Positions 13,493-58,164 of a stretch of DNA of 64,000 bases are shown piece by piece; positions within the stretch are counted from its first letter, which is position 1, and each line of letters begins with the position of its first letter. The DNA is taken from NCBI GenBank assembly GCA_047946875.1, contig CP181398.1:463818-527817 (forward strand). Reading direction: 5' to 3'. A program made the position numbers and the translations under genes. The notes below the pieces were generated by a model. That model worked only from the letters and a program-made list of their open reading frames with translations, was not told where the DNA came from and made no database searches. Origin of the DNA: Candidatus Kerfeldbacteria bacterium (lineage in GTDB: Bacteria; Patescibacteriota; Patescibacteriia; UBA10025; JAHIVO01).

Positions 13493-14044
13493 ATGAGTAT
13501 AATAAGTGATAAAGAGTTTTATTTCGAAGATGCAATTAATTATTTAAAAAATGAACTAAACCAAATAAGGACTGGTACAGCTAATCCTTCTTTAGTAGAA
13601 AATATTAAAGTTGATTATTATGGTACTTTAACGCCATTAAATCAATTGGCAAATATAAGTATTCCAGATCCAAAGTCTATAGTGATTCAACCTTGGGATA
13701 AAAACATCATGAAGGAAATAGAAAAATCAATTCAGCAAACCGATTTAGGGTTAAATCCAGTAAACGAAGGAGAACAGCTTCGCATACCAATTCCTCCATT
13801 AACAGAAGAGAGAAGAAAAGATCTAGCAAAAAAAGTTCATGAGAAAACTGAAGATTGTAAGATTAGTATTAGAAATACACGTGAAGAAATTTGGAAAGAA
13901 ATAAAAGAGAAGAAGAATAATGGAGAGATATCAGAAGATGATATGTTTAATCAACAAAAGGAATTACAAAAATTGATTGAAGAGAAAAATAACCTCACTA
14001 AAGAAATCGGAGAGGGGAAAGAAAAAGAAGTTTTAACTTTATAA
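13493..14044 (+). CDS. frr: Ribosome recycling factor
   Basis: 183 aa. The sequence ...LNQIRTGTANPSLVENIKVDYYGTLTPLNQLANISIPDPKSIVIQPWDKN... is the RRF signature. Confidence 0.9.
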   Translation: MSIISDKEFYFEDAINYLKNELNQIRTGTANPSLVENIKVDYYGTLTPLNQLANISIPDPKSIVIQPWDKNIMKEIEKSIQQTDLGLNPVNEGEQLRIPIPPLTEERRKDLAKKVHEKTEDCKISIRNTREEIWKEIKEKKNNGEISEDDMFNQQKELQKLIEEKNNLTKEIGEGKEKEVLTL

Positions 14045-15247: not shown

Positions 15248-16309
15248 GTGGGAATATTTAATAACTTTTTTGGAAAATTTTCTAGAGATATGGGCATTGA
15301 TTTAGGTACTGCAAATACCTTGGTTTATGTTAAGGATAAAGGGATAATTATAAATGAACCTTCGGTTGTAGCTGTTAATACAAGAAATGATCAAATATTA
15401 GCAGTTGGCGAAGAAGCTCAAAAAATGATTGGTAAAACTCCTGCTCATATAGTTGCATCACGACCATTAGTTGATGGTGTGATCTCCGATTTTGAAATAA
15501 CTGAGAAAATGTTAAAATATTTTATTGACAAGGTTCATCGTGAAAGTTTTTCTATTTTGCCTAGACCACGAATTGTAATTGGTATTCCATTGGGTGTAAC
15601 AGAAGTTGAAAGAAAAGCAGTAGAAGATGCCTGTTTGAGTGCTGGTGCACGTGAAGTATTTCTAATAGAAGAGCCAATGGCTGCTGCTATTGGTGCAAGA
15701 ATGCCAATACAAGAAGCCACTGGTAGCATGGTAGTTGATATAGGTGGTGGAACAACAGAAATCGCTGTTATCTCATTAGGTGGAGTTATTACATGGAAGT
15801 CTATACGAATCGCAGGTGATGAGTTAGATAAAAATATTATACAATACGCCCGGGACCATTTTAATTTGTTGCTTGGAGATAGAACAGCTGAGGTTATTAA
15901 ATTAAAAATTGGATCTGCTTTTTCTTCTGAGGATCCTTTGACAACCACTATGAGAGGTAGAGATTTAATAACAGGTTTACCAAAAGAAGTAGAAGTAAAT
16001 AGTAATCACGTTCGTGAAGCAATTTCTAGATCATTAAGACAAATTATTGAAAATATAAAATCAACAATTGAAATAACACCCCCAGAATTAGTAGCTGATA
16101 TATTTGAAAGAGGTATAGTGTTGACCGGTGGTGGTGCTTTATTGAATAATTTAGATAAATTAATAAACCGTGAAACTAAAATACCTGTACATATTACAGA
16201 TGATCCTTTAACAGCTGTAGCAAGAGGTACGGGTATAGTATTAGATGACCTTGAAGCTTTAAAAGAAGTATTAGCTGATTCAGTTGATGCAAATACTTTT
16301 AAAAACTAA
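15248..16309 (+). CDS. mreB: Rod-shape determining protein MreB (paralog 2, in mreBCD cluster)
   Basis: MGIDLGTANTLVYV...VVDIGGGTTEIAV...LTGGGALL are present. It lies immediately upstream of mreC. Confidence 0.9.
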   Translation: MGIFNNFFGKFSRDMGIDLGTANTLVYVKDKGIIINEPSVVAVNTRNDQILAVGEEAQKMIGKTPAHIVASRPLVDGVISDFEITEKMLKYFIDKVHRESFSILPRPRIVIGIPLGVTEVERKAVEDACLSAGAREVFLIEEPMAAAIGARMPIQEATGSMVVDIGGGTTEIAVISLGGVITWKSIRIAGDELDKNIIQYARDHFNLLLGDRTAEVIKLKIGSAFSSEDPLTTTMRGRDLITGLPKEVEVNSNHVREAISRSLRQIIENIKSTIEITPPELVADIFERGIVLTGGGALLNNLDKLINRETKIPVHITDDPLTAVARGTGIVLDDLEALKEVLADSVDANTFKN

Positions 16310-31035: not shown

Positions 31036-31368
31036 CTACCAAGTAGTATCGATTTGAGAAGCAGTAGGTAGTCTCTCAATAGTCAACTCGAATCCTTGCG
31101 AAGCCAACTCCGTTCTGAGGTTTTTAATGACCTCCGGTGTTTCTCCACAATACCCATCGACCGTTGCTACTCCGTTTTCCCATTTGGTTGCATTCAGGCC
31201 CATTGTTTCGAGAATACTCACAACCATTGATTGACATGCAAAAAATGATGGTATGGGTACTCCCTTAGAATTATCGATAATGATACCGACTTCAAATTTG
31301 CCTGAAGGCAATTCGGAATTGAGGATATCAACCTCATTTAATTCCTTAAGAACAATTACGTTTGACAT
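31036..31368 (-). CDS. Hypothetical protein
   Basis: 110-aa ORF with island-like composition. I recognised no motif. Confidence 0.4.
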   Translation of the reverse strand: MSNVIVLKELNEVDILNSELPSGKFEVGIIIDNSKGVPIPSFFACQSMVVSILETMGLNATKWENGVATVDGYCGETPEVIKNLRTELASQGFELTIERLPTASQIDTTW

Positions 31369-31478
31369 ACTAGCTCCATAACAGAATAGGATTATGTAAA
31401 TGATTCTTGGTTCTATGTTAAGAGTGCAAACAATATAGACTAGCAGGAGGGTTATACATTGTCAAGGTCTAACGAGTT

Positions 31479-31923: not shown

Positions 31924-32108
31924 CTCCTATTTTTATAAAGATCTAATTAAATAATCTTATTACAACGGTTAAGAGTAGTCAAATACGTCTTGACCCTCAA
32001 AAAGGCCTATGTTATGATATATATATAACTGCGTATAATAACTCTTACACTCAGTTATATACATAGGTAAATACCCTATTAACTATATGTATATATCCTT
32101 TACCGCTT

Positions 32109-32152
32109 GTCATTCCGGGCTTGTCTGTCCGCCTCAGGAGGAATCCGGAATC
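32109..32152. repeat. GC-rich hairpin repeat (left copy; inverted partner at 34265-34289)
   Basis: GTCATTCCGGGCTTG[tctgtccgcctcaggagga]ATCCGGAATC. Apart from the 19-nt insertion it is the reverse complement of GATTCCGGATCAAGCCCGGAATGAC at 34265-34289. It contains the ATTCCGG/CCGGAAT palindrome. Confidence 0.6.
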
Positions 32153-32187
32153 TCTGATATAATTAAAACGTTAACTAACTTCCAAAT

Positions 32188-33126
32188 ATGTCACTACCTT
32201 ACATAGATGATTATCTATTAAACCTCCAAACTAATAACTACTCTGAAAAGACCGTTTACAACTACGAACGCGATTTAAAGGTGTTTGAGGAATACTTGGA
32301 TAAAGAGTCAAAGAAGCAGTTTAACACGCTTAAAAGGCGCGATATTGAGCTCTACAAGGCCTATTTGGTGTCTAGGGATCGAAATACTGCCAAGGGTGAG
32401 AAAAGCCTTAAAAAGCTAAATGCTTACTCCATGAATAGGATGTTATCTGCCTTACGCTCGTACTTGAAGTATATGATAGATAATGATTATAAATGTCCTG
32501 TTAACCCTCAAATGATCCGTTTATCGAAGACTACTAAGAAGCATCCTCAAGTTGCAGAATTAGAAGATATTGTTAGGTTGATAGAGTCCCCATCAAAATA
32601 CGAGAAAGCCAAACACATAGCTCTTCGTAACCGCGCCATGATGGAAGTATTATTCGCAACTGGCATGAGAATCTCAGAACTGATAAACTTGAATAAGAAT
32701 CAGATAGATGCAACTGGAAAAATATTTATCGAAGGTAAAGGACGCAAGCAACGTTTCGTTTATATGACAGAGAGAGCAAAACTTCATACAGAAAAATATT
32801 TAAACTCTAGAGGAGATAATCACCCTGCTTTATTCATCCCCTACCGTGGGTCTAATGCCGGTTCTATAAATTCGCGCATATCGCCTAATTACTTACAAAT
32901 GAAGATAAAACAGTACCGAGAGCGTTTAAAAATTAATGTTCCAACCTCAGCCCATAGCTTACGTCACGGGTTCGCTACATACTTAGCTGAGTCAGGCGCC
33001 AACCCCGCCGCGATCCAAATACTCCTAGGTCACGAATCACTAGATACTACTACAAGATATGTAAATGCCTCAGATAAATTCGCCGAAAAATCTCACCGGA
33101 AATTCCACCCCCTAAAAAACAAATAA
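32188..33126 (+). CDS. Tyrosine site-specific recombinase, XerC/XerD family
   Basis: 312 aa. The C-terminal catalytic region ...SAHSLRHGFATYLAESGANPAAIQILLGHESLDTTTRYVNAS supplies the R...H..R..Y residues. An N-terminal SAM-like domain is present. Its GC is higher than that of the core genes. Confidence 0.85.
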   Translation: MSLPYIDDYLLNLQTNNYSEKTVYNYERDLKVFEEYLDKESKKQFNTLKRRDIELYKAYLVSRDRNTAKGEKSLKKLNAYSMNRMLSALRSYLKYMIDNDYKCPVNPQMIRLSKTTKKHPQVAELEDIVRLIESPSKYEKAKHIALRNRAMMEVLFATGMRISELINLNKNQIDATGKIFIEGKGRKQRFVYMTERAKLHTEKYLNSRGDNHPALFIPYRGSNAGSINSRISPNYLQMKIKQYRERLKINVPTSAHSLRHGFATYLAESGANPAAIQILLGHESLDTTTRYVNASDKFAEKSHRKFHPLKNK

Positions 33127-33250
33127 CACACTCTTGTCACTCTGAGCTTATGCGAAGAGTCCCCTGACCGCAGGTCAGGAGATACTTCACTTCGTTCAGT
33201 ATGACAATCTAAAATTTCATCCACTTAAAGATAAATAATATATCAATCAT

Positions 33251-33421
33251 ATGAATGAATATAATCCAATAAAACATGAAAAAGAAATCAAAAAAACACA
33301 AAAAAAGAATTCACCCTTTAAAAACGTTATTATTATTCTAATCATTATCGGACTTTTATGTTTCTTACCTTTAATGTTTTATTTTGTTATGTTTTTTCGT
33401 CCAGATAAGATCTTTGGTTAA
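33251..33421 (+). CDS. Small membrane protein (56 aa), not in ORF track
   Basis: ATG at 33251 opens MNEYNPIKHEKEIKKTQKKNSPFKNVIIILIIIGLLCFLPLMFYFVMFFRPDKIFG. The stop is TAA at 33419-33421. It is preceded by the repeat CCACTTAAAGATAAATAA at 33221-33238. Confidence 0.3.
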   Translation: MNEYNPIKHEKEIKKTQKKNSPFKNVIIILIIIGLLCFLPLMFYFVMFFRPDKIFG

Positions 33422-33519
33422 TTTGATTTCTTATTAAGTATTCTCAAAAAAATAATCATGCATTAAAAGAACTTCGCAAAAAATTTCACCCACTTAAAGA
33501 TAAATAATTAATTTACCAG

Positions 33520-33561
33520 CCGTAACTTCATGCGAAGGCTGGACCACTTAAAGATAAATAA
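33520..33561 (+). repeat. 42-nt direct repeat copy 1 (CCGTAACTTCATGCGAAGGCTGGACCACTTAAAGATAAATAA)
   Basis: It is nearly identical to 34178-34219. It ends 1 nt before the ATG at 33563. The 18-nt core CCACTTAAAGATAAATAA also occurs at 33221-33238 and 33490-33507. Confidence 0.65.
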
Positions 33562-33562
33562 T

Positions 33563-34084
33563 ATGAAAAAAATTAATGACAAAAGTATTCTAATAATTGA
33601 AATCTTTTTCATGTCTCTTGGTACTTTTTTTATTATTTCCTCCTTATTTATCCCAAAACTTTTTTCCTGGTTAACCATAAATTATCAATTTGAAGCACCC
33701 CATTTAGTTATTCTCATCATCGGGCTTGCGGGGGTAGGTTTTGCCTGGTATCACAACATTAGAACAACTAATTTTAAAAGGCAGGATCATCCTAAGCAAA
33801 TTAGTTCTATTACACAAAGCTTTGTTAATATTGGTATTACTACAGGAAATATTTTACTGGGATATTTACTTGGTATCTTAGTTACCTACGTCATTAGTAT
33901 TTCAATAACTGAAACTCAACGAATAGTGTTTGGAATAGGTATAATGATGATTTATACTTCCTTATTAGGAATATTTGCAAAAAAAGATAAACAAAAGTTT
34001 TTAATAATGGTTTTAATAACATTAATGATTGCATGGCTTCTATCTATCGTATCTGGTTTATTGGACAATGCAATAAATAATTAA
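33563..34084 (+). CDS. Hypothetical polytopic membrane protein
   Basis: MKKINDKSILIIEIFFMSLGTFFII... has four or more TM helices. I chose the start at 33563 rather than the track start at 33530, because 33530 lies inside the direct repeat. Confidence 0.45.
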   Translation: MKKINDKSILIIEIFFMSLGTFFIISSLFIPKLFSWLTINYQFEAPHLVILIIGLAGVGFAWYHNIRTTNFKRQDHPKQISSITQSFVNIGITTGNILLGYLLGILVTYVISISITETQRIVFGIGIMMIYTSLLGIFAKKDKQKFLIMVLITLMIAWLLSIVSGLLDNAINN

Positions 34085-34177
34085 ATTCTTTTATGCCTCA
34101 GACAGGTTCGCTGAGAAGTCCCATCATAAATATCACCCTCTAAGCAAAAAAGAATAATTAACTAACAACTTTATCCG

Positions 34178-34219
34178 CCGTAGCTTTATGCGAAGGCTGA
34201 ACCACTTAAAGATAAATAA
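34178..34219 (+). repeat. 42-nt direct repeat copy 2
   Basis: CCGTAGCTTTATGCGAAGGCTGAACCACTTAAAGATAAATAA. Together with the copy at 33520-33561 it brackets the membrane-protein gene. Confidence 0.65.
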
Positions 34220-34227
34220 CTTTATAA

Positions 34228-34299
34228 AACATCCCTCATCCTGAACTTGATTAAGGATCCCCGAGATTCCGGATCAAGCCCGGAATGACAAACTAATAA
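34228..34299 (+). repeat. ~75-nt dispersed element, intact copy (AACATCCCTCATCC ... hairpin ... GAATGACAAACTAATAA)
   Basis: It contains the inverted hairpin copy at 34265-34289 and ends 1 nt before the ATG at 34301. Degenerate copies lie at 38524-38611 and 40194-40208. Confidence 0.55.
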
Positions 34300-34300
34300 T

Positions 34301-35152
34301 ATGAATGAAAACAAGCAAAAAATTATTGAACGATACTACCAATATTCCACACCATATTTATTGAAATACTGGTCTGATAAGGAAAGTATGAGTATTCATT
34401 ATGGTTTTTGGTACCCAGAAACAAAATCGCGTAGCGAAGCATTCTTAAACCAACACCGCTCAGTAGTCGAACTACTACAACCTTCGGCTGATGATTATAT
34501 CCTAGATATAGGTTGTGGAGTCGGCGGCGTTTCTACATGGCTCGCACAGCATACACCAGCACGCTACGTCGGTATCACTCTCGCTGACAACCAAATCCGT
34601 ATGGCCCGACAATTAGCCCAACGTCGAAAAGTGGCAGACCGTACAGCATACAGCCGTATGGATTTTTTTAAAACATCTTTCAATGATAATACCTTTACTA
34701 AGGCATTTGCTATTGAGAGTATTTGTCACTCTTATCCACGCCAACTTGAAGTATTTCGAGAAATGTACCGTATCCTTAAGAAGGGAGCAACTTTACTTAT
34801 TTCTGATTCTGCCCTTTTTCGGCAAGCAACCGGAAAGCAAGAATTAAAATGGGTAAAAAATTTCTGTAACGGCTGGGCCATGACTGATTATAGTACTATT
34901 AATGACATTGTAATTTCTTTAAAAAAGGCGCAATTTAAAAATATACGAATCATCGACCGAACAAAGCTTGTCTCACGTAATATTAATCAAATTTATTGGA
35001 TCGGCATCTGGTCATATCCATTGTTAAAAATCAAGCAACTACTTGGCCATCTTCCAAAAATAGTATTAGGTAACAACCTGGCCGCAGTTACCCAAAAGAA
35101 GTTAGTTAATGCCGATCTGGCCGGATATTTTTCAATTATTGCTCACAAATAA
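34301..35152 (+). CDS. Class I SAM-dependent methyltransferase
   Basis: The glycine-rich SAM motif ILDIGCGVGGVS is present, as is the downstream acidic residue typical of the Rossmann MT fold. It is 283 aa. Its GC is higher than that of the core genes. Confidence 0.7.
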   Translation: MNENKQKIIERYYQYSTPYLLKYWSDKESMSIHYGFWYPETKSRSEAFLNQHRSVVELLQPSADDYILDIGCGVGGVSTWLAQHTPARYVGITLADNQIRMARQLAQRRKVADRTAYSRMDFFKTSFNDNTFTKAFAIESICHSYPRQLEVFREMYRILKKGATLLISDSALFRQATGKQELKWVKNFCNGWAMTDYSTINDIVISLKKAQFKNIRIIDRTKLVSRNINQIYWIGIWSYPLLKIKQLLGHLPKIVLGNNLAAVTQKKLVNADLAGYFSIIAHK

Positions 35153-35155
35153 AAT

Positions 35156-36313
35156 ATGGCAAAAACAACATTAAACTACAAACTACTACTCCACTTATTT
35201 GATTCTGCATATATCAGAAGATGGAACGATCAAGTAAGGACAGCAGACTTCCGAGAGATTGATAAACAAGCACATAAGTTTATTATTGCTTTTTTGATTG
35301 GGAAACATAACAAGAGTAAAGACTTTGACTGGCAATCATTGATAGAAGCTGGGGTATACGAATTTTTTCATCGATTAGCGCTCACAGACCTGAAGCCTCA
35401 ACTCTTTCATAGAATCACAGAAGACAAAGCAACTTACAAAAAATTAATCACTTACTCAAAAAATAAATTAGCTGAATCTTTCAATGATAACGATTTTTTG
35501 AAAGCATACGAAGAATATTTCATAAAGAAATTAACCAAACCAAACATCTATAACCAGATCATGGACTCTGCCAACTATATTGCATCCAGAGAAGAATTTG
35601 AAATCATTAAGCAAACAAATCCAAAAGGATACAGAGTTGCATTAATAGATAAAGAAATCAAAAAGAATATTGATACTGCCTTAAAAATCGAAGGAGTTAA
35701 AAATATTGAGAATAATAAAAAACTACGAGACTTCATAAAACTTTGCGGTCAGCTAAGATTTCAGATCAGATGGAGCAATATGCATCGTGTACCAAAAACA
35801 TCTGTACTTGGACATATGCTAACAGTTGCGATCATTACATATTTACTTACCAAGGATGACAAAACCAAAATCAAGAATATTTACAACAATTTTTTTACTG
35901 GCCTATTCCACGATTTACCCGAAGCACTCACTAGAGATATAATGAGTCCACTCAAAGAAGTTGGCGGGATGTTAGATATAATTAAAAAGTACGAGCGTGA
36001 AGAGATGGAACAAACGGTATATCCCCTTCTACCCGCACATATCAAATCTGATATTAAACTATTCACCATGAATGAATTTGATATACTTAAAAAAGGTAAG
36101 AATATAACTAGAAACGGAGATTTATTAAAAGCCGTTGACCGTTTATCAGCTTATATAGAAGCATATCTAGCACTACAGAATGGTGTAAAAAATAAAGACC
36201 TAAAAGATGCACGAACTACCCTTGCAAAAAAATATACCAAGACACCTATTATCGGTGGTGTAAACTTCGGCAATTTTTATAAGGATTTAGAAAATAAATT
36301 TTTAATAATATGA
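35156..36313 (+). CDS. HD-domain phosphohydrolase, YfbR/HD_3-like (possibly internally duplicated)
   Basis: RW...H...HD pattern (IRWSNMHRVPKTSVLGHMLTVAI...GLFHDLPEALTRDI). The N-terminal half repeats an RW-containing segment. It lies 3 nt after the MT gene. Confidence 0.45.
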   Translation: MAKTTLNYKLLLHLFDSAYIRRWNDQVRTADFREIDKQAHKFIIAFLIGKHNKSKDFDWQSLIEAGVYEFFHRLALTDLKPQLFHRITEDKATYKKLITYSKNKLAESFNDNDFLKAYEEYFIKKLTKPNIYNQIMDSANYIASREEFEIIKQTNPKGYRVALIDKEIKKNIDTALKIEGVKNIENNKKLRDFIKLCGQLRFQIRWSNMHRVPKTSVLGHMLTVAIITYLLTKDDKTKIKNIYNNFFTGLFHDLPEALTRDIMSPLKEVGGMLDIIKKYEREEMEQTVYPLLPAHIKSDIKLFTMNEFDILKKGKNITRNGDLLKAVDRLSAYIEAYLALQNGVKNKDLKDARTTLAKKYTKTPIIGGVNFGNFYKDLENKFLII

Positions 36314-36759
36314 ACCCAGAACAACCAAAAATAACATCCACCTCCACTTATGAAGAAGATGCGTCATACACTGATCCTGTAGCAATTGAACAAGAAAGAA
36401 ATATATTATTATCAATGGATAAAGAAGAAAAATTATTTATTGCTCCTAATCAACCCTCTAAAGGTGAATTGGAAATGATGCAACTGCAATTATTTGAAGC
36501 ACGTGAAGATCTGGGCGGAAAGTCAGCCTACGATTATTTTGATAAAATTATTTTTGGGCACGGTGAAGGTCCTGCTAATATAGACCAACGAACATTCAAA
36601 GGTGCAAATGATTTAGATGAAAAATATCAGGGCACTATTGGTGATATCAAAGAACGTATTGGTGTAGACAATAAAAAAATACTAATCATAGTATGTGGAT
36701 CAAATAAAGAAGATAAAATGACGCTAACAAAAGCAATACAAGCATATTTTTCAAATTAA
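36310..36759 (+). CDS. Hypothetical protein
   Basis: 149 aa. Its start overlaps the previous stop (ATGA), so it is translationally coupled to the HD gene. Confidence 0.35.
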   Translation: MNPEQPKITSTSTYEEDASYTDPVAIEQERNILLSMDKEEKLFIAPNQPSKGELEMMQLQLFEAREDLGGKSAYDYFDKIIFGHGEGPANIDQRTFKGANDLDEKYQGTIGDIKERIGVDNKKILIIVCGSNKEDKMTLTKAIQAYFSN

Positions 36760-36801
36760 TATAAATAATGTTAAACATACTAAAAAGAAATTTAAAAAAA
36801 T

Positions 36802-37245
36802 ATGAAAAAAATTATTATCCCTCTCATCTTCATTAGCTTATTTATTATCATCCCATTAGTAAATGCAATTACCGTGGATTCAGCTTTAGGCACCAGTATG
36901 AGCGATGAACGAGTACCATATCCCGAATCCTCAACTATTAATGTAATGGATTTAATAATATTTTTCTTAATTATAATATCATTAATTAGTATAATTTATA
37001 GTATTATTTTTTTAATTACTACTAAATTAAAAATTAAAAAATTAACAATGAATAATAATCAAATACAATCTGAAAAAGAAATATCACCAGAATCAAAACT
37101 TGAATATGAAAAGTATAAAAAATTAACCAAACACTACAAAAGAATATTATTTGTTGGTTTAATAGTATTTATTGTAGCTGTAGCTTACGTGGTATTTATT
37201 ATTAATAATCCTTGCTGTAATTCACTTAATAGCGTTATATACTAA
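36802..37245 (+). CDS. Hypothetical membrane protein
   Basis: 147 aa with an N-terminal signal/TM segment, a central TM helix and a C-terminal TM helix. Confidence 0.35.
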   Translation: MKKIIIPLIFISLFIIIPLVNAITVDSALGTSMSDERVPYPESSTINVMDLIIFFLIIISLISIIYSIIFLITTKLKIKKLTMNNNQIQSEKEISPESKLEYEKYKKLTKHYKRILFVGLIVFIVAVAYVVFIINNPCCNSLNSVIY

Positions 37246-37310
37246 ATTTTATTCCCTACAAAAATAATTAAGAACGATTTAATAAATAAACTAAAAATAA
37301 AGAAAATAAT

Positions 37311-37862
37311 ATGGAAGAACACGTGGTATTGGTAAATAATAAAAATGAAGTATTAGGCACAGCCCCCAAATCCACCGTGCACACCAATGACACCCCTCTT
37401 CATCGAGCCTTTTCTTCATTTATTTTTAACCGCAAAGGTGAAATATTATTATCACAAAGGAGCGGTCAGAAAAAAACTTGGCCCTTAGTCTGGACAAATA
37501 GTTGTTGTGGTCATCCAGCACTGAACGAATCTAATACTGATGCAGTCAGACGAAAATTATTAGATGAGCTTGGACTCGAGATAGAAGAAATCCATGAAGT
37601 CCTCCCCGACTATCGATATAAAGCTGAAAAAGAAGGGCTAGTAGAAAACGAAATATGTCCGGTATTCATAGCCTTTACTAACAACCAACCAATACTTAAC
37701 AAACAAGAAGTAGAGTCTACTAAATTGATGGTGTGGCCAGAATTCATTAAGGAAATAAAAAACAATCCCAACAATTGGTCACCGTGGTGTGTAGAAGAAG
37801 TTATATTGCTAGAAAAAAATAATTTATTTAACAAACTACTTAAAAAATATACTACTATATAA
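37311..37862 (+). CDS. idi: Isopentenyl-diphosphate delta-isomerase, type 1 (Nudix fold)
   Basis: HRAFSSFIFN...WTNSCCGHP (the conserved Cys motif of IDI-1) plus a glutamate-rich Nudix-like region EICPVF. It is 183 aa. Confidence 0.7.
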   Translation: MEEHVVLVNNKNEVLGTAPKSTVHTNDTPLHRAFSSFIFNRKGEILLSQRSGQKKTWPLVWTNSCCGHPALNESNTDAVRRKLLDELGLEIEEIHEVLPDYRYKAEKEGLVENEICPVFIAFTNNQPILNKQEVESTKLMVWPEFIKEIKNNPNNWSPWCVEEVILLEKNNLFNKLLKKYTTI

Positions 37863-37874
37863 TATATTACCAAA

Positions 37875-38519
37875 ATGAATCAAAAAATTAAAACAATAAT
37901 ATATGACTTTGATGGCACTATAATTAATACCCTCCCTTGGCATTTACGAGCATATAGAGAATCTCTAAAAAAATTAGGAGTAGAATTATCCGATAAGAAA
38001 ATTATAAAGAATTGCTTCAACATCATCGATACTGTTGCGGCAAAAAACTTGGAGCTCGAAGATGTAGAATCTTTTTCTAAGTATTATCATCAAGGTGCTC
38101 GAGATGGTTTTAAACAAGCTGATTTGCATAAAAACATTATTATTACCCTAACTAAGCTAAACCAATTAGGATATACTGTTTGCCTTGGCTCTTTAGGAAG
38201 GAGATCAAACTTTGATCCAGCACTTAAACGATTTGATCTGGAAAAATATTTCAAAATAATCCTAAGTTATGATGAATGCCCACACGAAAAACCGATCATC
38301 CTGCAGACACTTGCTAAAAAAATAAACGCTAACCCGTCTGAAATATTAATAATTGGCGATGCCTATAATGATATTGAAGCAGCCAAGATTATGAATAGCA
38401 CTATAGCACTTTACCATCCTCCAGAGCATGAAAAATTTTATTCACGTGCCTCACTACAATTATTAAAACCAAATTTTATTATCGAAGATCATTTAGATAT
38501 AATTAAATTACTAAATTAA
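37875..38519 (+). CDS. HAD-superfamily hydrolase (subfamily IA-like)
   Basis: Motif I IIYDFDGTIINT and a late GDAYNDIEAA (motif IV) are present. It is 214 aa. Confidence 0.7.
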   Translation: MNQKIKTIIYDFDGTIINTLPWHLRAYRESLKKLGVELSDKKIIKNCFNIIDTVAAKNLELEDVESFSKYYHQGARDGFKQADLHKNIIITLTKLNQLGYTVCLGSLGRRSNFDPALKRFDLEKYFKIILSYDECPHEKPIILQTLAKKINANPSEILIIGDAYNDIEAAKIMNSTIALYHPPEHEKFYSRASLQLLKPNFIIEDHLDIIKLLN

Positions 38520-38523
38520 ACTC

Positions 38524-38611
38524 AACATAATCCTCTACCGTCCCTTGTTACTCTAATTCTAACAGCATAAAGGCTGGAATCTAGAACAATTCAAGAATGA
38601 CAAACTAATAA
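38524..38611 (+). repeat. Degenerate copy of the dispersed element (AACATAATCCTCTAC ... GAATGACAAACTAATAA)
   Basis: It shares its 5' 15-mer with 40194-40208 and its 3' 17-mer with 34283-34299. It lies upstream of an unrelated methyltransferase gene. Confidence 0.5.
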
Positions 38612-38625
38612 ATAATTATTTATTT

Positions 38626-39372
38626 ATGAAACTAAAAGAAACATTTAGTACAATTCCATTACAGTATGACAAAGTACGACCTGATTATCCCCCTACCCTT
38701 TTTCAGGATATTTTAAATTACAGTCAATTGAGTAAAAGTGATCCCATTTTGGAAATTGGTATTGGTACTGGTAAGGCCACGCTACCATTCGCCAAACATG
38801 GTAATCCTATTATAGCGAATGATATCAGCCGAGAATTAATTGGCGTAGCTAAAAATAAACTTAAAAATTACAAAAAAATTAAATATGTTGTCGGACAATT
38901 TGAAAAAATAATATTACAAAAAAATAAATTTGGACTTATATACTCCGCACAAACTTTTCATTGGATTAAGCCAAATATACAATTTACAAAAACCCACTCA
39001 TTACTCAGGCAAGATGGTGTGTTAGCTCTTTTTTGGAATCTAAATTATTATGATCAAGGTATCGGCAAGTGGGCTCTTAAACTCAATAAAAAATATTCTT
39101 CAGCAAAAAAAGGTAAAACACGATCTATTATACAACAATTTAAACGACACCGTCTTTTTAAAGATGCAATTATAAAAGAATACCGCCGTGAAATAGGAAT
39201 GAGCAAAATTAACTATATTAAAATGCAAACATCACATTCTTGGTACCTAGTACTATCAGATAAACGAAAACAGCTTGCTATGATTGATTTACAAAAAGCT
39301 CTTATTCATTACCCAAAAATCATAAAAATGCCAATAAAAACGATATTAGTAATGGCTAAAAAAAATAAATAA
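38626..39372 (+). CDS. Class I SAM-dependent methyltransferase
   Basis: ILEIGIGTGKATLPFA SAM-binding motif. It is 248 aa. Confidence 0.65.
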   Translation: MKLKETFSTIPLQYDKVRPDYPPTLFQDILNYSQLSKSDPILEIGIGTGKATLPFAKHGNPIIANDISRELIGVAKNKLKNYKKIKYVVGQFEKIILQKNKFGLIYSAQTFHWIKPNIQFTKTHSLLRQDGVLALFWNLNYYDQGIGKWALKLNKKYSSAKKGKTRSIIQQFKRHRLFKDAIIKEYRREIGMSKINYIKMQTSHSWYLVLSDKRKQLAMIDLQKALIHYPKIIKMPIKTILVMAKKNK

Positions 39373-39382
39373 TCCACTTAAC

Positions 39383-40177
39383 ATGGAAGATCTAACAACA
39401 CTATCTCAAAAATTTCGCTTTTCATATTTTTCCAGTAAGTACTGGCTTGAGTCTGTTTGTAAAATAGAAGAAAGAAATAATGAATCCCTGGCATTAATTG
39501 AAAGTCTTGATGAAAAAGGAAAATGGATATTACAGTATACCCCCGAAAAAACTGAAAATCTTTATGGTGCAGAGATTTTATGGGCAACACAATCAGAATT
39601 GGATCGTATTACTGACCAAGAGATTAGTATAATAAAAAATGAGAAATCCATGCAAGAATATTTTTTCAAAACTAGCGATCTTATTTCCCTAGATGGTAGT
39701 GCCAATAAACAGAAACGTAGGGACATTCGATTATTTGAAAAAAAATATTCGTTTAAATTAGTACATACATACGACAAACAAAAAACCATTGCCTTTCTCA
39801 AAGATTGGGATCAAAAACAAGAAATTAAGACAGCTCCATACAAACGTGGTTTAAACTTTTGCTATTACCTACTTGATTACATCGACTCAGATGATAATTT
39901 ACGAGCTAATTATGTATTAATAGATAATAATCTCGTTGGTTTTTCTATCGGTGAAAAACTGACCAAAGACCATTGGATTGGATTGCACCAAAAAACTGAT
40001 TATAAGTATTTAGGTATTGGTAGATGGATGATCCGAGAACGAGCCAAATTATTTGTCGATGTGCAAATGATAGCGTCAGGTGGATCTATGGCTGACAAAG
40101 GAATCGCCCAATTCAAAGAAAGTTTTAACCCAACAAAAATTGAACAATATTACCACGTAATATTAAATAAGAAATAA
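39383..40177 (+). CDS. Hypothetical protein (possible GNAT-like fold)
   Basis: 264 aa. I recognised no strong motif. It lies 10 nt after the MT gene. Confidence 0.3.
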   Translation: MEDLTTLSQKFRFSYFSSKYWLESVCKIEERNNESLALIESLDEKGKWILQYTPEKTENLYGAEILWATQSELDRITDQEISIIKNEKSMQEYFFKTSDLISLDGSANKQKRRDIRLFEKKYSFKLVHTYDKQKTIAFLKDWDQKQEIKTAPYKRGLNFCYYLLDYIDSDDNLRANYVLIDNNLVGFSIGEKLTKDHWIGLHQKTDYKYLGIGRWMIRERAKLFVDVQMIASGGSMADKGIAQFKESFNPTKIEQYYHVILNKK

Positions 40178-40193
40178 TATAACTAATCAACTT

Positions 40194-40208
40194 AACATAA
40201 TCCTCTAC
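40194..40208 (+). repeat. 5' 15-mer of the dispersed element (AACATAATCCTCTAC)
   Basis: It matches 38524-38538 exactly. It lies 10 nt upstream of the ATG at 40219. Confidence 0.45.
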
Positions 40209-40218
40209 TCATAACTTA

Positions 40219-41031
40219 ATGAATAAAGAAAATTTTCCAAATATAAAAGAACTATTCAAAAATTTTGAAGGGCGTAAAAAAATGCTACGTGGTATTAAAC
40301 GTTATAATATCCGTCCAGTGATGTTTTACCGACCAGATCTTTATACTCACTCATTACACTTAGGATTAATCCTGCATGACTTAGCGGATAATATTAACCA
40401 AGTTTTTGGAGACAAAGTAGATATTGAGAAAACTATCTTGATGGGACTTATCCATGATGATCTAGAATTAGTCATGGGTGATATACAAGCTGCGCACAAA
40501 GCAAGGATGACACCAGAGCAGACCGCAGAGCTCCTAGAAACAGAATCAAAAGCTATCACCGAGATAAGTCAGAAGTTCCCGAAGAAAATTGGAAACTATA
40601 ATTATGAATCATTGTTACGTGAAGGGAATGATAGAAAAACAATAGAAGCAAGATTAATGCATTTTGCTGACCAGTTGGACGGTTTATGTGAATCTCTTCA
40701 TGAAGTTTATGGAGGCAACAAAAAATTTGAGCTAAATATTGTCACGGATGGATACGGAGCACATCCATCTCCAACAAGATTCTATGTACAGATAATATCA
40801 GATTTTAGTAAAAATTATCCAGAGATTCAACCTTTGTTTGAAACAAAACATCCTTTTCTCACTCCCCTACCAACTATTAATTTTAAGAAAACCGTTTTGA
40901 AAAACAAACCACACACCAAACAATCCATACTAAATAATGTTGGATATACACTCTACGATCACTGGAGAAAAATCATACGTGAATATGCAGATGAAAAGTT
41001 ATACAGTAATTTATATTTAAAACAAGAATAA
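40219..41031 (+). CDS. HD-domain phosphohydrolase, YfbR/HD_3-like (paralog of 35156-36313)
   Basis: H...HD motif (HSLHLGLILHDLAD...MGLIHDDLELVMGDI). It shares the GL(F/I)HD(L/D).E..(T/M).DI block with the other HD protein. Confidence 0.5.
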   Translation: MNKENFPNIKELFKNFEGRKKMLRGIKRYNIRPVMFYRPDLYTHSLHLGLILHDLADNINQVFGDKVDIEKTILMGLIHDDLELVMGDIQAAHKARMTPEQTAELLETESKAITEISQKFPKKIGNYNYESLLREGNDRKTIEARLMHFADQLDGLCESLHEVYGGNKKFELNIVTDGYGAHPSPTRFYVQIISDFSKNYPEIQPLFETKHPFLTPLPTINFKKTVLKNKPHTKQSILNNVGYTLYDHWRKIIREYADEKLYSNLYLKQE

Positions 41032-41032
41032 T

Positions 41033-42151
41033 ATGAAAAAAATAATAATTATAGTAATTATTTCTTTATTAGTAATAGGAGCTTGCGCTTGGTATTTAAT
41101 TACAGATAAAGAAGATGGTAATAACTGGGAAATATCAGAAAATGAAACATTCGAGACATCAATAATTGCAAACGATCGGTTTGGTTTTTTAGTCGGTTCA
41201 TCGGCTAAAGAGATGGAATTAGCCCGAGAAACTGGCGCTGGTTGGATTCGACCTCATCCTGGTCCGTTTGTCTGGGGAGAGATGCAAGAAAATGCTTCAA
41301 GTGAAATAGATTTCTCAAACACTGATAACATGATCAAATCCAGTGCTACTTATGATATTAATATCCTTCCTACCATCTGGCACTACGCTGAATGGGATCA
41401 GCAAGATAATCCAAACTCTAACGAATGTATAGCTTCAACTAGTGAATTCAAAAGAGAATTTGGTGAGTATCGTTGTGTTCCATATCATTGGAAGGAATAC
41501 CTAGGATGGGTTTCGATGATCGTAGAACGATATGATGGTGATGGACTTGGTGATATGCCAGGTTTAAAAAAACCAATTACTCACTGGGAGATAATGAATG
41601 AACCAGACTTAGGTACCCCAGACAGTAGTCCTGGTCTGCAATTTTTAATTGGAGAACCTTCCGATTATGCTGAACTTCTGAAAAGGACAAGTAGTGCTAT
41701 CCGAACTTCCGATCCAAATGCTACTATTCTAATAGCTGGTGCTGCTGGCGGTGATGAATCTTTTTTAAATTATTTCAGAGAAGTATTTTCAGATAAAGAA
41801 ACGCTAGATACATTTGATATCGCTAATGTACATTGTATTTCAAATGGAGATGTTGATTCATTTAATACAGTTCCCTATGCAGCAATGCTAGCTGAGTTTA
41901 ATATCAATAAACCAATCTGGGTCACTGAAGCCGAAGCATTTCAAAAAGATTCTTTTGAACAAAGAAAATATACATTAGATGAGCAACTATTAGTTAGTAG
42001 TATAAATGCTTTCGCTTCCGGAGCTGAAAAAATATTTTTTACATCAATGAACTTAGATCATATACCTGGTGGTGATAATAATAAACCCTCCAAAAAAGAT
42101 GGACCTCAAGCATCAACTGAAGTTTATCAAAAAATATTCAATAATTTTTAA
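41033..42151 (+). CDS. Membrane-anchored glycoside hydrolase, clan GH-A (GH5-like)
   Basis: N-terminal TM helix. WEIMNEPD carries the acid/base Glu in an NEP motif, and IWVTEAEA carries the nucleophile Glu in a TE motif. This is the (beta/alpha)8 clan A pattern. Confidence 0.45.
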   Translation: MKKIIIIVIISLLVIGACAWYLITDKEDGNNWEISENETFETSIIANDRFGFLVGSSAKEMELARETGAGWIRPHPGPFVWGEMQENASSEIDFSNTDNMIKSSATYDINILPTIWHYAEWDQQDNPNSNECIASTSEFKREFGEYRCVPYHWKEYLGWVSMIVERYDGDGLGDMPGLKKPITHWEIMNEPDLGTPDSSPGLQFLIGEPSDYAELLKRTSSAIRTSDPNATILIAGAAGGDESFLNYFREVFSDKETLDTFDIANVHCISNGDVDSFNTVPYAAMLAEFNINKPIWVTEAEAFQKDSFEQRKYTLDEQLLVSSINAFASGAEKIFFTSMNLDHIPGGDNNKPSKKDGPQASTEVYQKIFNNF

Positions 42152-42405
42152 TTTAATTGTATAAAAAATACATAATTAAAAATGAAGATGTTAGAAAAAT
42201 ATCAAGAATAAAATAACTCCCTGAATATATAAATATACCCAGAGAGCTTCGCATTACGGATGATAATAAAGATCTATTATAAAGCCCTGAAAAGCAGGGA
42301 CGTAATAAAGTATATATTACTAAATCGTAAGTTAATTATAATATAAAATCTTTGAAACTAAAAGTAGCATTCGTAGAAGATACCTTAAATCATTAGAAAA
42401 ATAAT

Positions 42406-43041
42406 ATGAACACAAAACATTGGGACCAACTACATGACAACTATACCAAAGTTGATTGGATTGACACACCAACAGAATTCTCACAGTGGGTCATTAAACA
42501 TTTATCACCCAATGGAAAGCTACTAGATATTGGTGGTGGACAAGGCCAAGACTCACGCTTCTTTGCTGACAAAGGATATAACGTAACACTATTAGATATA
42601 TCACCACGTGGATTGGAACTAGCTAAAGAAAAAACTTCAAAAAAATTACAAAAAAATCTTTCTTTTTACCAACATGATATTAGTAAATTACTTCCCTTTT
42701 CTGATAGTTCTTTTGACTTTGTATATACACATTTAGCCATTCACTACTTCAATAAAAAAACAACAAAACAAATTTTTGATGAGATGTATCGAATATTAAA
42801 AAAAGATGGGATAATCGCGATTTTCACTAATTCAATAAATGACCCGGAATATAATACAGGGGTAAAAATCGAAAAAGATTTTTTCGAGATTAGTGGAGTT
42901 AGAAAGAGATACTTTTCTATAGAAACTATGATAGAATTTACTAAGGGATTTGATACTATTGCTATTGATGAAAAAGGCAGTACCCCTAAAGACCGCGCAG
43001 TAAATACAAATAATTTAATTCGTTATATAGGAAAAAAATAA
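42406..43041 (+). CDS. Class I SAM-dependent methyltransferase
   Basis: LLDIGGGQGQDSRFFA motif. It is 211 aa. Confidence 0.7.
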   Translation: MNTKHWDQLHDNYTKVDWIDTPTEFSQWVIKHLSPNGKLLDIGGGQGQDSRFFADKGYNVTLLDISPRGLELAKEKTSKKLQKNLSFYQHDISKLLPFSDSSFDFVYTHLAIHYFNKKTTKQIFDEMYRILKKDGIIAIFTNSINDPEYNTGVKIEKDFFEISGVRKRYFSIETMIEFTKGFDTIAIDEKGSTPKDRAVNTNNLIRYIGKK

Positions 43042-43074
43042 TATGTCCAAATTATTAACAATTAACAAATAAAT

Positions 43075-43335
43075 ATGCCTACTATAGACGAACTACAAAA
43101 CCAAATAAACGAAATCAAAGAACGTAATAAGAAAGTCGAAGCTGATAAAACTTGGGAAACAAGCTGGATAAGAAAAATAATTGTGTTTATACTCACCTAC
43201 TTAGTAATTGTAGTATTCTTCTTAATCTCAGAGTTACCTAGTCCATTTATCAATGCGATAGTGCCTGCTCTGGCTTTTGTAATATCTACTCTTACACTCT
43301 CACTATTTAAGAAGATATGGTTAAAAAATAATTAA
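43075..43335 (+). CDS. Small membrane protein
   Basis: 86 aa with an N-terminal coiled segment and two TM helices. Confidence 0.35.
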   Translation: MPTIDELQNQINEIKERNKKVEADKTWETSWIRKIIVFILTYLVIVVFFLISELPSPFINAIVPALAFVISTLTLSLFKKIWLKNN

Positions 43336-43719
43336 ATGGATCTTTTAGAATTTGAAGATACAATTAAACAAGCTGTAGAAGCAGTACCTACTGAAATAAG
43401 AAAAAATATGGTTAATATAGGTTTTGTAGTAGAAGATGATCCGCGAGCAGCTAAGAATACAGAACATGCTATAAAATCTAATGGTGTTTTACTTGGTCTT
43501 TACCAAGGAGTTCCTCTTCCTAAACGTAGTGCTTATTATAGTGGCGCTTTACCAGATAAAATAACTATATTCAAAAATTCTATTGAAAGAATATTTGGAC
43601 CTGATACAGAAAGTATAAAAAGAAAAATATTTGATGTAGTACATCATGAAATTGGTCATTATCTTGGAATGGATGAACATACGGTAAGAAAATGGGAAAA
43701 AAATAGGAATAATAAATAA
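43336..43719 (+). CDS. Zincin-like mini metallopeptidase (HExxH)
   Basis: HHEIGHYLGMDE is a C-terminal HExxH motif in a ~127-aa protein. This resembles the small zincin-like families. Confidence 0.45.
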   Translation: MDLLEFEDTIKQAVEAVPTEIRKNMVNIGFVVEDDPRAAKNTEHAIKSNGVLLGLYQGVPLPKRSAYYSGALPDKITIFKNSIERIFGPDTESIKRKIFDVVHHEIGHYLGMDEHTVRKWEKNRNNK

Positions 43720-43730
43720 ACATTATATTT

Positions 43731-44195
43731 ATGAAAATACAAAAAGCAACTGAATCAGATAAAGATGGAGTTTTAAAAATCCTTGACGAATTCAGGGACG
43801 CCTGTATGAAAATAATATCACCAGAAAAAGAATTTATTTCAACTACCGCCAAAAATCATGGCAGTAAAGTCTTTGATAATATTATTGACTCTCCATATTC
43901 AGCAATATTTATTGCTAAAGAAAAAAATGAGTACCAAGGCATAATTACCATTCATAAAGTACCGCGTCTCAGACGAGGAACCTACTATGCCGAAATAGAA
44001 GAAATATTTGTAAAAGATGAATTTCAAGGTACTGAAATAGCACAAAAATTAATAGAAGCCACTGAAAAATGGTCAAAAGAAAACAATATCGAAGTTATAC
44101 ATTTAAAAAGTGGCATTGAATTAAAACGAGCTCATTCTTTTTACAAAAAAGTAGGCTTCAGACATTATGCTGAGGGCTACGAAAAAATCCTTTAA
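43731..44195 (+). CDS. GNAT family N-acetyltransferase
   Basis: The acetyl-CoA binding region VKDEFQGTEIAQKLIEATEKW (Q/RxxGxG/A-like) is present. It is 154 aa. Confidence 0.65.
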   Translation: MKIQKATESDKDGVLKILDEFRDACMKIISPEKEFISTTAKNHGSKVFDNIIDSPYSAIFIAKEKNEYQGIITIHKVPRLRRGTYYAEIEEIFVKDEFQGTEIAQKLIEATEKWSKENNIEVIHLKSGIELKRAHSFYKKVGFRHYAEGYEKIL

Positions 44196-44200
44196 TACTT

Positions 44201-44503
44201 ATGTCTTCAAATCAATTTAAATTACAATCTAAAGTTTGGCAATCGCCAGGTAAGGATATTTGGCACTTCGTATCTCTGCCAAAAAAACAATCAAAAGATA
44301 TTATGATCTTTTTTCAAGGCTTAACTCGTGGTTTCGGTTCATTACCAGTTAATGTAACAGTTGGTAGAACAAAATGGAAAACGTCAATTTTTCCCGATAA
44401 GAAAAACGGTATGTATATTCTTCCACTTAAAAAAGAAGTAAGAAATAATGAAAATATTCAAAATGGTGATACAATTAACTTATTAGTTAAAATACTTATT
44501 TAA
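44201..44503 (+). CDS. DUF1905-like protein
   Basis: ...LPVNVTVGRTKWKTSIFPDKKNGMYILPLKKEVR resembles the DUF1905 core as I recall it. Confidence 0.4.
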   Translation: MSSNQFKLQSKVWQSPGKDIWHFVSLPKKQSKDIMIFFQGLTRGFGSLPVNVTVGRTKWKTSIFPDKKNGMYILPLKKEVRNNENIQNGDTINLLVKILI

Positions 44504-44539
44504 TATAGATTATAACCATAACGACAAACAAATAATACT

Positions 44540-44953
44540 ATGCCATTAGGAGAAGTAACCAAAACAGAAGATTCTAACAAAACTAGCTCTAAGACAAAGC
44601 GTCATCTTTTTTTTAAAAAAATAAAAAAGATATTTTGGCTTATAATCATTCTCATTATAATTATTCAAGGATACCTAATAGCAACCAATTTTTTTAGTAA
44701 ACAACCTAACTTAAAAATGTGTTATGACAGATTTACTTGTGTTGGATATTGTGGAGTAGATTCTCAAAAAGAATGTTACAGTCTTGTGAGCGATGAAGAT
44801 TATAAAAAAGAATATAACTTCGGACAACTAATCAAAGGCAAGATAAACATTATCGAATTTTTCAACAAAAATACCAAATACTGTTATTGTGATTATTCCT
44901 CAGACTTAAGTGACCATGAAGAATTATACAATTTTTACAAGAAAAACAACTAA
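44540..44953 (+). CDS. Membrane-anchored Cys-rich hypothetical protein
   Basis: 137 aa. A basic N-terminus and one TM helix are followed by a Cys/Tyr-rich extracytoplasmic domain. Confidence 0.35.
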   Translation: MPLGEVTKTEDSNKTSSKTKRHLFFKKIKKIFWLIIILIIIIQGYLIATNFFSKQPNLKMCYDRFTCVGYCGVDSQKECYSLVSDEDYKKEYNFGQLIKGKINIIEFFNKNTKYCYCDYSSDLSDHEELYNFYKKNN

Positions 44954-58102: not shown

Positions 58103-58164
58103 CTATATGCTTATTATATAAGTAGTATATAATAGCTATATGCTTATTATATAAGTAGTATATA
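58103..58164. repeat. Tandem direct repeat, 2 copies of a 29-nt core with 33-nt period
   Basis: CTATATGCTTATTATATAAGTAGTATATA occurs twice, at 58103-58131 and 58136-58164, separated by ATAG. Confidence 0.7.

Follow-up and report, generated by a model that had tools for sequence, protein, structure and literature searches.

Palindromic hairpin repeats and gene-end fragments at the joints of a variable gene array beside xer in a Candidatus Kerfeldbacteria bacterium

Why should genes that are not related to one another carry the same short pieces of DNA immediately in front of their start codons? This question is raised by a 64,000-nt stretch of the genome of a Candidatus Kerfeldbacteria bacterium (contig CP181398.1, positions 463,818 to 527,817 of the forward strand; hereafter the window, numbered from its first letter). 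An initial annotation had described in it a dispersed element of about 100 nt upstream of two methyltransferase genes and a hydrolase gene. When we re-read the window, all the quoted sequences and coordinates proved correct: a 17-mer, GAATGACAAACTAATAA, is identical at 34283 and 38595, and a 15-mer, AACATAATCCTCTAC, is identical at 38524 and 40194 (exact matches in both cases). The gaps to the start codons were also as described, 1 nt (ATG at 34301), 14 nt (ATG at 38626) and 10 nt (ATG at 40219). The genes that follow encode a CMAS/Methyltransf_11 enzyme, a second Methyltransf_11 enzyme and an HD/YfbR-like hydrolase, and they are indeed not close paralogs. The two methyltransferases, like the two HD proteins of the region, share only superfamily-level likeness, and because the members of each pair are so remotely related, a recent gene duplication does not account for the common DNA. 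An old tandem duplication of a methyltransferase and HD unit was ruled out for the same reason.

We observed that the proposed element joins three unrelated kinds of junction sequence: one half of a hairpin palindrome, a fragment of the start of another gene (F13), and displaced copies of the last six to nine codons of the neighbouring xer gene. On balance, we are inclined to read them as REPIN- or NIME-like palindromes together with recombination scars, situated in a rearrangement hot spot. A single element of about 100 nt was thus not borne out; what lies there is a patchwork of a palindromic hairpin repeat and leftover gene-end fragments. The segment 38524-38611, taken for a degenerate copy of 34228-34299, does resemble it over the 3' 35 nt (77%), but the 5' parts (37 vs 53 nt) are not alike, with 1412 of 2000 shuffles scoring equally well. 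The degenerate 15-mer proposed at 34228 (34228-34241) does not align with the 15-mer family. The 15-mer and the hairpin with its 17-mer are independent modules, and relatives have the 15-mer motif without any hairpin.

The 17-mer lies within the right half of a two-hairpin palindromic element that ends in TTGTCA...TGACAA. Its layout is TTGTCAyTC-stem-loop-stem-GArTC, a spacer, and GATTC-stem-loop-stem-GAATGACAAA. In copy 1, the right hairpin reads GATTCCGG-ATCAAGC-CCGGAATGAC from 34265 and has a 7-bp stem, and the left half (CTCATCCTGAA..AGGATCC) has its match in that of a doublet in L086 (loci of other genomes are given here by L numbers), where it stands upstream of a different gene (an F9 methyltransferase). 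Copy 2 is evidently a genuine, decayed member of the family, because L064 carries an intact doublet (CTTGTCACTCTGAATTTATTTCAGAGTC ... GAGATTCCGGATCGGTGTCCGGAATGACAGAATAATAAC, at 13888-13967) after the orthologous HAD gene, at the position where the window has the decayed CTTGTTACTCTAATT ... CTGGAATCTAGAACAATTCAAGAATGACAAACTAATAA. The region from 32.1 to 34.3 kb was found to hold more repeats than had been listed. Among them is a complete two-hairpin palindrome of 74 nt at 33134-33207, which as single-stranded DNA folds at -15.5 kcal/mol (z=-4.0, 0/200 shuffles as good); the element after xer in L144 is near-identical to it, and a related one is present in L061/L146. An inverted half-element upstream of xer (32102..32155) did not fold better than shuffles.

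We further estimated how widely this hairpin occurs. The 17-mer was searched for in a species-representative genome collection of 596 Gb, in which the source genome is not among the representatives, and was found at 54 loci, which is about the number expected by chance. Roughly 18 of the 54 loci had GATTC, a GC-rich stem-loop and GAATGACAAAC directly upstream. The contigs of these loci are labelled Planctomycetales, Spirochaetia, Nitrospira, Bacteroidales, Abditibacteriaceae and others, although such labels of metagenome-assembled genomes may be binning errors. The hairpin is frequently an inverted doublet (TTTTGTCATTC..GAATCCAG, spacer, CTGGATTC..GAATGACAAAA), as also in L136, L038 and L143, and hairpins with the common ends CTGGATTCC-stem-GGAATGACAAA occur in contigs of many phyla (L004-L057; for instance L038 4681-4796, L017 and L034 1989-2060). 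In 885 kb of Patescibacteria loci, an unbiased set, a perfect stem of at least 7 bp was seen in 8/87 cases of GAAT followed by GAC, against 80/8656 for all GAAT (about 10-fold).

A covariance model (R1) was built from 25 hairpins of other organisms, none of them from the window, and was then applied to the entire window with filters disabled. The best match was copy 1 (34262-34296, 36.7 bits, E=1.3e-7), followed by 32102-32148 on the minus strand (16.1 bits, E=0.045) and by copy 2 (38574-38608, 12.1 bits, E=0.5). No further match in the window was better than chance level (all others had E above 1), and all copies lie between 32.1 and 38.6 kb. The stems of R1 covary, with 94% of cells paired and 25 cells changed on both sides, in sequences that had been chosen for pairing. 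Complete doublets folded strongly (z=-4.0 at 33134-33207, -4.9 in L064 and -4.5 in L086); copy 1 reached z=-2.2, and copy 2, at z=-1.6, was not better than shuffles. On one strand, the loops of many family members are of the GNRA type. Rfam gave no match, either in the whole window at gathering thresholds or between 31.9 and 34.4 kb in E-value mode, and a literature search with sequence strings of the repeats returned primer matches only. The initial suggestion of an element resembling miniature inverted-repeat transposable elements therefore fits the 3' part, a palindromic hairpin-forming repeat family also present in unrelated genomes; its other half, a mobile promoter cassette, found no support.

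The 15-mer (motif D) has a different origin. It is identical to codons 4-10 of F13, a YbjT-like NAD-binding gene (PF13460, NAD_binding_10; MPNP-LIIILYG-PTG). This gene is intact in L062, L064, L141 and L143, and no intact copy is present in the window. It starts with ATG CCA AAT CCA CTC ATC ATA ATC CTC TAC GGT CCC ACC GGC (MPNPLIIILYGPTG), which encodes the first strand and glycine loop of a Rossmann fold. In 885 kb of related loci, a search for the extended motif, ACTCAACATAATCCTCT, that tolerated up to 3 mismatches gave 9 distinct sites and 1 additional chance match. All 9 share the gene (+) strand and follow xer at a distance of 0.3-7 kb, and they occur in the closest relatives only and before different genes. 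The fragment at 38520 runs two F13 codons further, and the decayed hairpin starts after it. The fragment at 40190 has a counterpart in L058, which carries a 40-nt F13 start fragment before its own HD gene; blastn homology between the window and L058 begins 46 nt upstream of the HD start. The window also has a relic of the 3' end of F13 (12/18 residues identical, same stop), so that, with the 5' fragment at 40190 and this relic at 42160, the HD gene and a glycosyl-hydrolase-like gene lie between F13 remnants. L141 has pieces of the F13 start that span about 6 to 21 codons, along with three start fragments of another array gene. A relative of the 15-mer with 3 mismatches (TACATAATCCTATTC) stands at 31384-31398 on the minus strand, 5' of the reverse-strand gene 31036-31368 and with GGAG before the start codon; it may be a chance match.

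The third kind of junction sequence comes from xer itself. Four occurrences of a second 17-mer, CACTTAAAGATAAATAA, lie between 33222 and 34219. The full copied stretch, AAA TTT CAY CCA CTT AAA GAT AAA TAA (KFHPLKDK-stop), reproduces the conserved Xer C-terminus, and all Xer relatives end in ...KFHPLK... The copies in the window are A1 to A4. The partial ones, A3 and A4, each come just after a hairpin of a second type (B). L144 and L143 have this hairpin as well, following their xer-end regions. In the window, 19-nt direct repeats stand on either side of the B1 hairpin, whose repeat family (D3) matches 34159-34229 at 82%. Displaced xer ends were found only downstream of xer and on the same strand, and the relic scan found none in 400 kb of control sequence.

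Relatives showed the same pattern. In L082, about 105 nt comprising the xer end and the start of the next gene recur 1.7 kb downstream; L145 has an xer-end relic after an inserted reverse-strand gene, and L143 has two relics. In L144, whose Xer is 94% identical, a hairpin element and a B hairpin are followed by a displaced copy of the xer end that is resident in the window, together with the element that comes after it there. The displaced ends in the window and in relatives indicate that material has been inserted repeatedly at the end of xer. The genes inserted there encode small membrane proteins, and no recombinase is among them. In metagenome contigs of the same strain (JGI 3300083231), L001 ends at the first xer-end copy and L003 begins about 55 nt past that copy; therefore, either the repeats break assemblies or the region varies within the population. 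Exact matches to proteins of the window came only from the same strain in other assemblies, whose contigs are interrupted at the repeats.

Table 1. Features of the xer region and of the gene array downstream of it (window coordinates)
Position	Strand	Feature	Basis
32027..32056		Candidate dif site, AACTGCGTATAA-TAACTC-TTACACTCAGTT; 12-nt inverted arms, 6-nt centre	k-mer census and scan
32102..32155	-	Hairpin half-element, inverted, enlarged loop (TTGTCATTCCGGGCTTG...ATCCGGAATCTC), upstream of xer	R1 match; stem ATTCCGG/CCGGAAT
32188..33126	+	Xer-family tyrosine recombinase, housekeeping	Pfam Phage_integrase and SAM_1; synteny
33127..44953	+	Co-oriented accessory array, about 12 kb	Methyltransferases, HD, NUDIX, HAD, GNAT, glycosyl-hydrolase-like protein, small membrane proteins
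33134..33207		Complete two-hairpin palindrome, TTGTCAC...central hairpin...TATGACAA	Two halves around a central hairpin
33211..33239	+	A1, displaced xer 3' end (AAA TTT CAT CCA CTT AAA GAT AAA TAA)	Sequence reading, relic scan
33480..33508	+	A2, second displaced xer 3'-end copy	Repeat family D19, relic scan
33516..33562	+	B1 hairpin (CCAGCCGTAACTTCATGCGAAGGCTGG), 33516-33542, and A3, partial xer-end copy, 33544-33562	Repeat family D3; fold z=-2.8
34175..34220	+	B2 hairpin, decayed, 34175-34200, and A4, partial xer-end copy, 34202-34220	Directly abuts copy 1
34235..34293	+	Copy 1, two-hairpin: left half CTCATCCTGAACTTGATTAAGGATCC, 34235-34260, partly decayed; right half GAGATTCCGG-ATCAAGC-CCGGAATGACAAAC, 34263-34293, intact	R1, fold
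38520..38544	+	D2, F13 5' coding-end fragment (ACTCAACATAATCCTCTAC CGTCCC = LNIILYRP)	Alignment to intact F13 of L062 and L064
38545..38611	+	Copy 2, decayed two-hairpin (TTGTTACTCTAATT... / CTGGAATCTAGAACAATTCAAGAATGACAAAC) with tail	R1, fold
40190..40208	+	D3, F13 5'-end fragment (ACTTAACATAATCCTCTAC) before the HD gene	Orthologous to L058 relic tATGCCAAACCAACTCAACATAATACTCTACGG
42160..42216	+	F13 3'-end relic, last 18 codons (YKKYIIKNEDVRKISRIK stop)	blastn and tblastn to F13 of L064 and L062

The three kinds of junction sequence all lie at joints of the accessory array, which starts at the xer stop codon, beside the candidate dif site. A comparison of gene order with relatives had been proposed as a check; it showed that the array families are all on the xer strand and that their order differs in every genome. 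Relatives with 79-88% Xer identity draw on a common pool downstream of xer (inositol phosphatase, HD/YfbR, HAD, several methyltransferases, GNAT, alpha/beta hydrolase, F13 and an 86-residue protein), while those at 70% Xer identity are without the array. The side upstream of xer is syntenic in relatives. Nucleotide homology between the arrays is limited to the genes, and at the joints we found hairpin elements, gene-end fragments and short C-rich leaders; many joints are without any of these motifs. The tRNA scan found none, so a tRNA-linked island was ruled out. Many array genes of relatives (L059/L064, L062, L060, L141) start with ATGCC right after a C-rich tract (e.g. CTCCCCCACCCC-ATG), without a Shine-Dalgarno sequence. 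The core genes in the window have GGAGG, and short gene-start fragments of the array are repeated at other joints in relatives.

It had also been proposed that the repeats serve the adjacent recombinase as its recombination site. We examined this enzyme and found NCBIfam scores of 198 bits for XerC, 185 for XerD and 174 for XerA, while the integron integrase model TIGR02249 matched in two pieces with 81 bits, against a cutoff of 265. Among solved structures, those closest to the enzyme are Xer proteins. A protein of a Candidatus Kerfeldbacteria genome is 100% identical to it, and homologs with 65-70% identity occur throughout Patescibacteria. The position of the gene in relatives is conserved as well (after alanine racemase, an FtsQ-like gene, a PD-(D/E)XK gene, HU and DUF4342). 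To judge by these comparisons, the enzyme is the housekeeping Xer of Patescibacteria and is not IntI-like.

A k-mer census of 80 related loci yielded a 30-nt palindrome, AACTGAGTATAA-TATCTC-TAATACTCAGTT. A dif-like palindrome of this kind was present in 79 of 83 sources, as a single copy per locus and at 30-560 nt 5' of xer, and a scan that allowed up to 8/30 mismatches found one such site in the window, 130 nt 5' of xer. The cumulative GC skew climbs as far as about 26 kb, stays level up to 44 kb and declines beyond, and gene orientation turns from + to - at about 45 kb; together, these make the centre of the window look like the replication terminus. Most simply, xer and the upstream palindrome would form a dif-xer module like difSL-xerS or difH-xerH, the palindrome being a candidate dif. 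The single-recombinase Xer systems (difSL-xerS in streptococci, PMC1914069; difH-xerH, PMC3325230; archaeal XerA, PMC2958812) likewise have one xer, a palindromic site directly upstream and a terminus defined by skew, although the likeness bears on the neighbouring recombinase and not on the repeats, and dif is here a candidate. No publication on dif in Patescibacteria was found in the literature. The D motif and the xer-end motif were also tried as dif sites or half-sites, and their likeness to dif was not above chance (402/5000 shuffles or worse). That the candidate dif is single and lies elsewhere, and that the motifs are unlike dif, argues against their being sites for the neighbouring recombinase.

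How the joints may have arisen is best considered beside known repeats. The identities of the modules, the positions of the junctions and the reshuffling of gene order among relatives are direct observations. The hairpin elements would be non-autonomous repeats, spreading or persisting in the form of DNA (or RNA) hairpins. Both they and the duplicated gene ends may be footprints that insertions, deletions and duplications have left time and again in a terminus region prone to recombination, events for which they probably also act as substrates of short homology. Sequences would then be shared upstream of unrelated genes because the joints draw on one stock of repeats, and not for gene control.

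With REPINs and BIMEs (Bertels & Rainey 2011, PMC3116915; PMC3337134), the elements share the two-hairpin architecture, the intergenic location, single units that look like decayed remnants, and compensatory changes in the stems. A REP-like unit, a short stem-loop with conserved flanks, is seen at 34263-34293, and inverted units with a spacer that fold as one long hairpin, as in a REPIN doublet, are seen at 33134-33207, in L064 and in L086; copies 1 (left half decayed) and 2 (both halves decayed) are doublets in decay. The likeness to the Neisseria NIME (PMC1797815) lies in the GC-rich ATTCC...GGAAT hairpin, the AT-rich modules in between, the mosaic intergenic arrays by variable genes and a proposed role in local recombination. 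There, dRS3 (ATTCCC-N8-GGGAAT, a 20-bp inverted repeat) flanks RS repeat modules of 50-150 bp, and the elements were described as Neisseria-specific (PMC1797815). In the window, the interval 33127-34300 similarly has hairpins flanking repeat modules, in the order hairpin E, A1, A2, B1, A3, B2, A4, copy 1, and L144 carries related modules in a different arrangement. The window hairpin is ATTCCGG-N7-CCGGAAT and thus differs from the 20-bp dRS3, whereas family members in L030/L049, ATTCCCGCTTTCGCGGGAAT, fit the dRS3 pattern exactly. Unlike a NIME, the array here is small and, as far as seen, confined to the xer/dif neighbourhood. The Francisella small RNA FtrB (Rfam RF02748; PMC3091763) has a consensus with the same hairpin pair (GUCAUUCCCGCG..GCGGGAAUC ... 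GAGAUCC..GGAUUGU). The Nitrospira doublet in L038 aligns end to end to the FtrB model (33 bits, E=0.011, below the threshold of 66 bits), while the window itself has no FtrB match.

Several observations weigh against a mixture of REPIN-like repeats and scars. REPIN sequences are lineage-specific and vertically inherited (PMC3116915, PMC3337134), whereas the ends of the present hairpins (GTCATTC...GAATC) are conserved across phyla. No RAYT/Y1 was found among 27 array and flanking proteins in a general Pfam scan (no search aimed at RAYT/Y1 or IS110 was made). The copy number looks low in the sequence at hand, 64 kb of a 1.3-Mb genome, and R1 was sparse in 880 kb of Patescibacteria xer neighbourhoods, with 15 matches of which 6 are the model's own source sequences. 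The xer-end insertions of several relatives fall at nearly one point (TTYCAY|CCNCTTAAA), which looks more site-specific than random scarring. Moreover, xer-end copies agree at 26/27 positions between the window and L143, and D agrees at 17/19 between the window and L058, while in both cases the flanks do not align; neutral scars should be less well kept. This conservation hints at a function, e.g. as insertion target, translation-start context or promoter.

Of the rival explanations, chance similarity within AT-rich intergenic DNA is the simplest, and we consider it very improbable. It would agree with the chance-level rate of the 17-mer in unrelated genomes (54 loci in 596 Gb), with the finding that at up to 3 mismatches the repeats have no more matches in the window than in shuffles, and with the expectation that, in a whole 64-kb window at 30% GC, about 21 pairs of 15-mers and about 2.5 pairs of 17-mers would be identical. 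But both copies of each repeat lie inside the intergenic share of the window, which is 10%, and for wholly intergenic pairs the expectation is about 0.2 (15-mers) and about 0.03 (17-mers). There are four families of exact repeats of at least 15 nt that are wholly intergenic; two are the present repeats and the third directly adjoins them. These statistics, the recurrence of the motifs at equivalent positions in relatives and the match of R1 to copy 1 (E=1e-7) refute chance for practical purposes, and both repeats are non-random. We regard as unlikely, on other grounds, that the repeats are expression signals used over again, be it as a -10 sequence (CATAAT in D), as a translation-start context (AAATAAT-ATG after hairpin and xer-end copies) or as an RNA hairpin that stabilises or processes transcripts. 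It speaks for such a role that all copies are on the coding strand just 5' of start codons, that [C/T]ATAAT is kept in 9/9 non-coding D copies and not in one coding copy (the F13 of L064), and that D and A copies are better kept than their flanks; the GNRA-type loops and the weak match of the family doublet to FtrB point the same way. The promoter and terminator scan, though, showed no enrichment (70 promoter-like matches in the region vs 86 in shuffles), and none of the promoter-like, sigma-70-like or terminator-like sites that it listed lies inside 34228-34299 or 38524-38611. There is no -35 partner for the hexamer in D, and no T-run for termination. D stands anywhere between 0 and 21 nt from the ATG (the motifs taken together, between 0 and more than 80 nt), with a decayed hairpin element intervening at 38520. 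In relatives, orthologs of the HAD, CMAS-type methyltransferase and HD genes have different upstream sequences. Since the motifs are absent before orthologs, stand at variable distances from the starts and contain no promoter-like hexamers, and since the hairpin of copy 2 has decayed, they do not appear to control the downstream genes, and neither the promoter cassette nor the shared regulatory leader of the initial annotation was supported.

A site-specific gene-cassette system, integron-like or Xer-dependent as in integrative mobile elements exploiting Xer (IMEX), would explain the repeats as attachment sites regenerated by each insertion of promoterless genes; we find this account no more convincing than that of expression signals. 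Much of the layout suits it. The genes of the array are co-oriented, begin at a tyrosine recombinase gene and are arranged differently in every relative; copies of D are direct repeats immediately 5' of different genes, and in L064 a run of D-gene units closes with an intact F13 that bears D in its own 5' end. In the window, two genes lie between the 5' and 3' relics of F13, the B1 hairpin has its direct repeats, and insertions at one point have displaced an xer-end copy in the window, L082, L144, L145 and L143. No mobility genes are found among the xer-proximal cassettes, so help in trans would be needed. Integrons (IntI, attI, attC) also have co-oriented small genes of unrelated function beside a tyrosine recombinase gene, in an order that varies between relatives, and imperfect palindromes of 60-90 nt between the genes. 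They differ in that the recombinase here is Xer-like and not IntI, points the same way as the array, and most joints are without a palindrome. The attC cores are R'' RYYYAAC ... R' GTTRRRY at the 3' end of each cassette. On reading, the present elements end in (G)TTTGTCA...TGACAAA(C), with GTT outermost and not innermost, the reverse of the R''/R' order. An integron was thus ruled out by the integrase type (81 bits against the cutoff of 265 for TIGR02249) and the palindrome ends. Accessory DNA gathers beside dif/xer in Acinetobacter pdif modules and in IMEX such as CTX-phi and TLC-phi too, but those are bounded by dif-like sites, whereas here there is one dif-like site and the junction repeats are unlike dif. 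Furthermore, the displaced gene-end copies range from 19 to about 105 nt and the F13 relics from 6 to 21 codons; sizes so variable are more readily explained by homology-driven or illegitimate events than by a fixed crossover point, and many joints have none of the motifs. The cassette boundary of the initial annotation therefore stands as a description, with the same families in varying order and repeats at their joints, and finds no support as the site of a dedicated recombinase. A shade less probable still is an undescribed platform at the dif-xer of this clade, in which, much as in an integron, promoterless genes would be inserted at the last xer codons, at D and at folded two-hairpin elements, the motif being regenerated each time without IntI, perhaps by Xer or by a single-strand hairpin mechanism.

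Two further repeats were noted elsewhere in the window. An intergenic tandem direct repeat at 58103-58150 has two units of CTATATGCTTATTATATAAGTAGTATATA with a 33-nt period, and a 143-nt direct repeat (9475-9617 and 15641-15783, 71% identity, 6.2 kb apart) is probably inside paralogous genes.

Taken alone, the finding is an ordinary one, a set of intergenic palindromic repeats with scars of recombination, and more is to be learned from its context. This includes a candidate dif for the single Xer of Patescibacteria, kept in nearly all the relatives examined, and it points to the DNA just 3' of xer at the terminus as the place where a clade of reduced genomes keeps and reshuffles small accessory enzymes. 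Bacteria of the Candidate Phyla Radiation (CPR) and of many other phyla carry a hairpin repeat whose ends are those of Neisseria dRS3 and Francisella FtrB. If the junction motifs were truly insertion sites, they would represent a new kind of cassette system. The repeats themselves are of an ordinary kind, but they illustrate how small CPR genomes rearrange.

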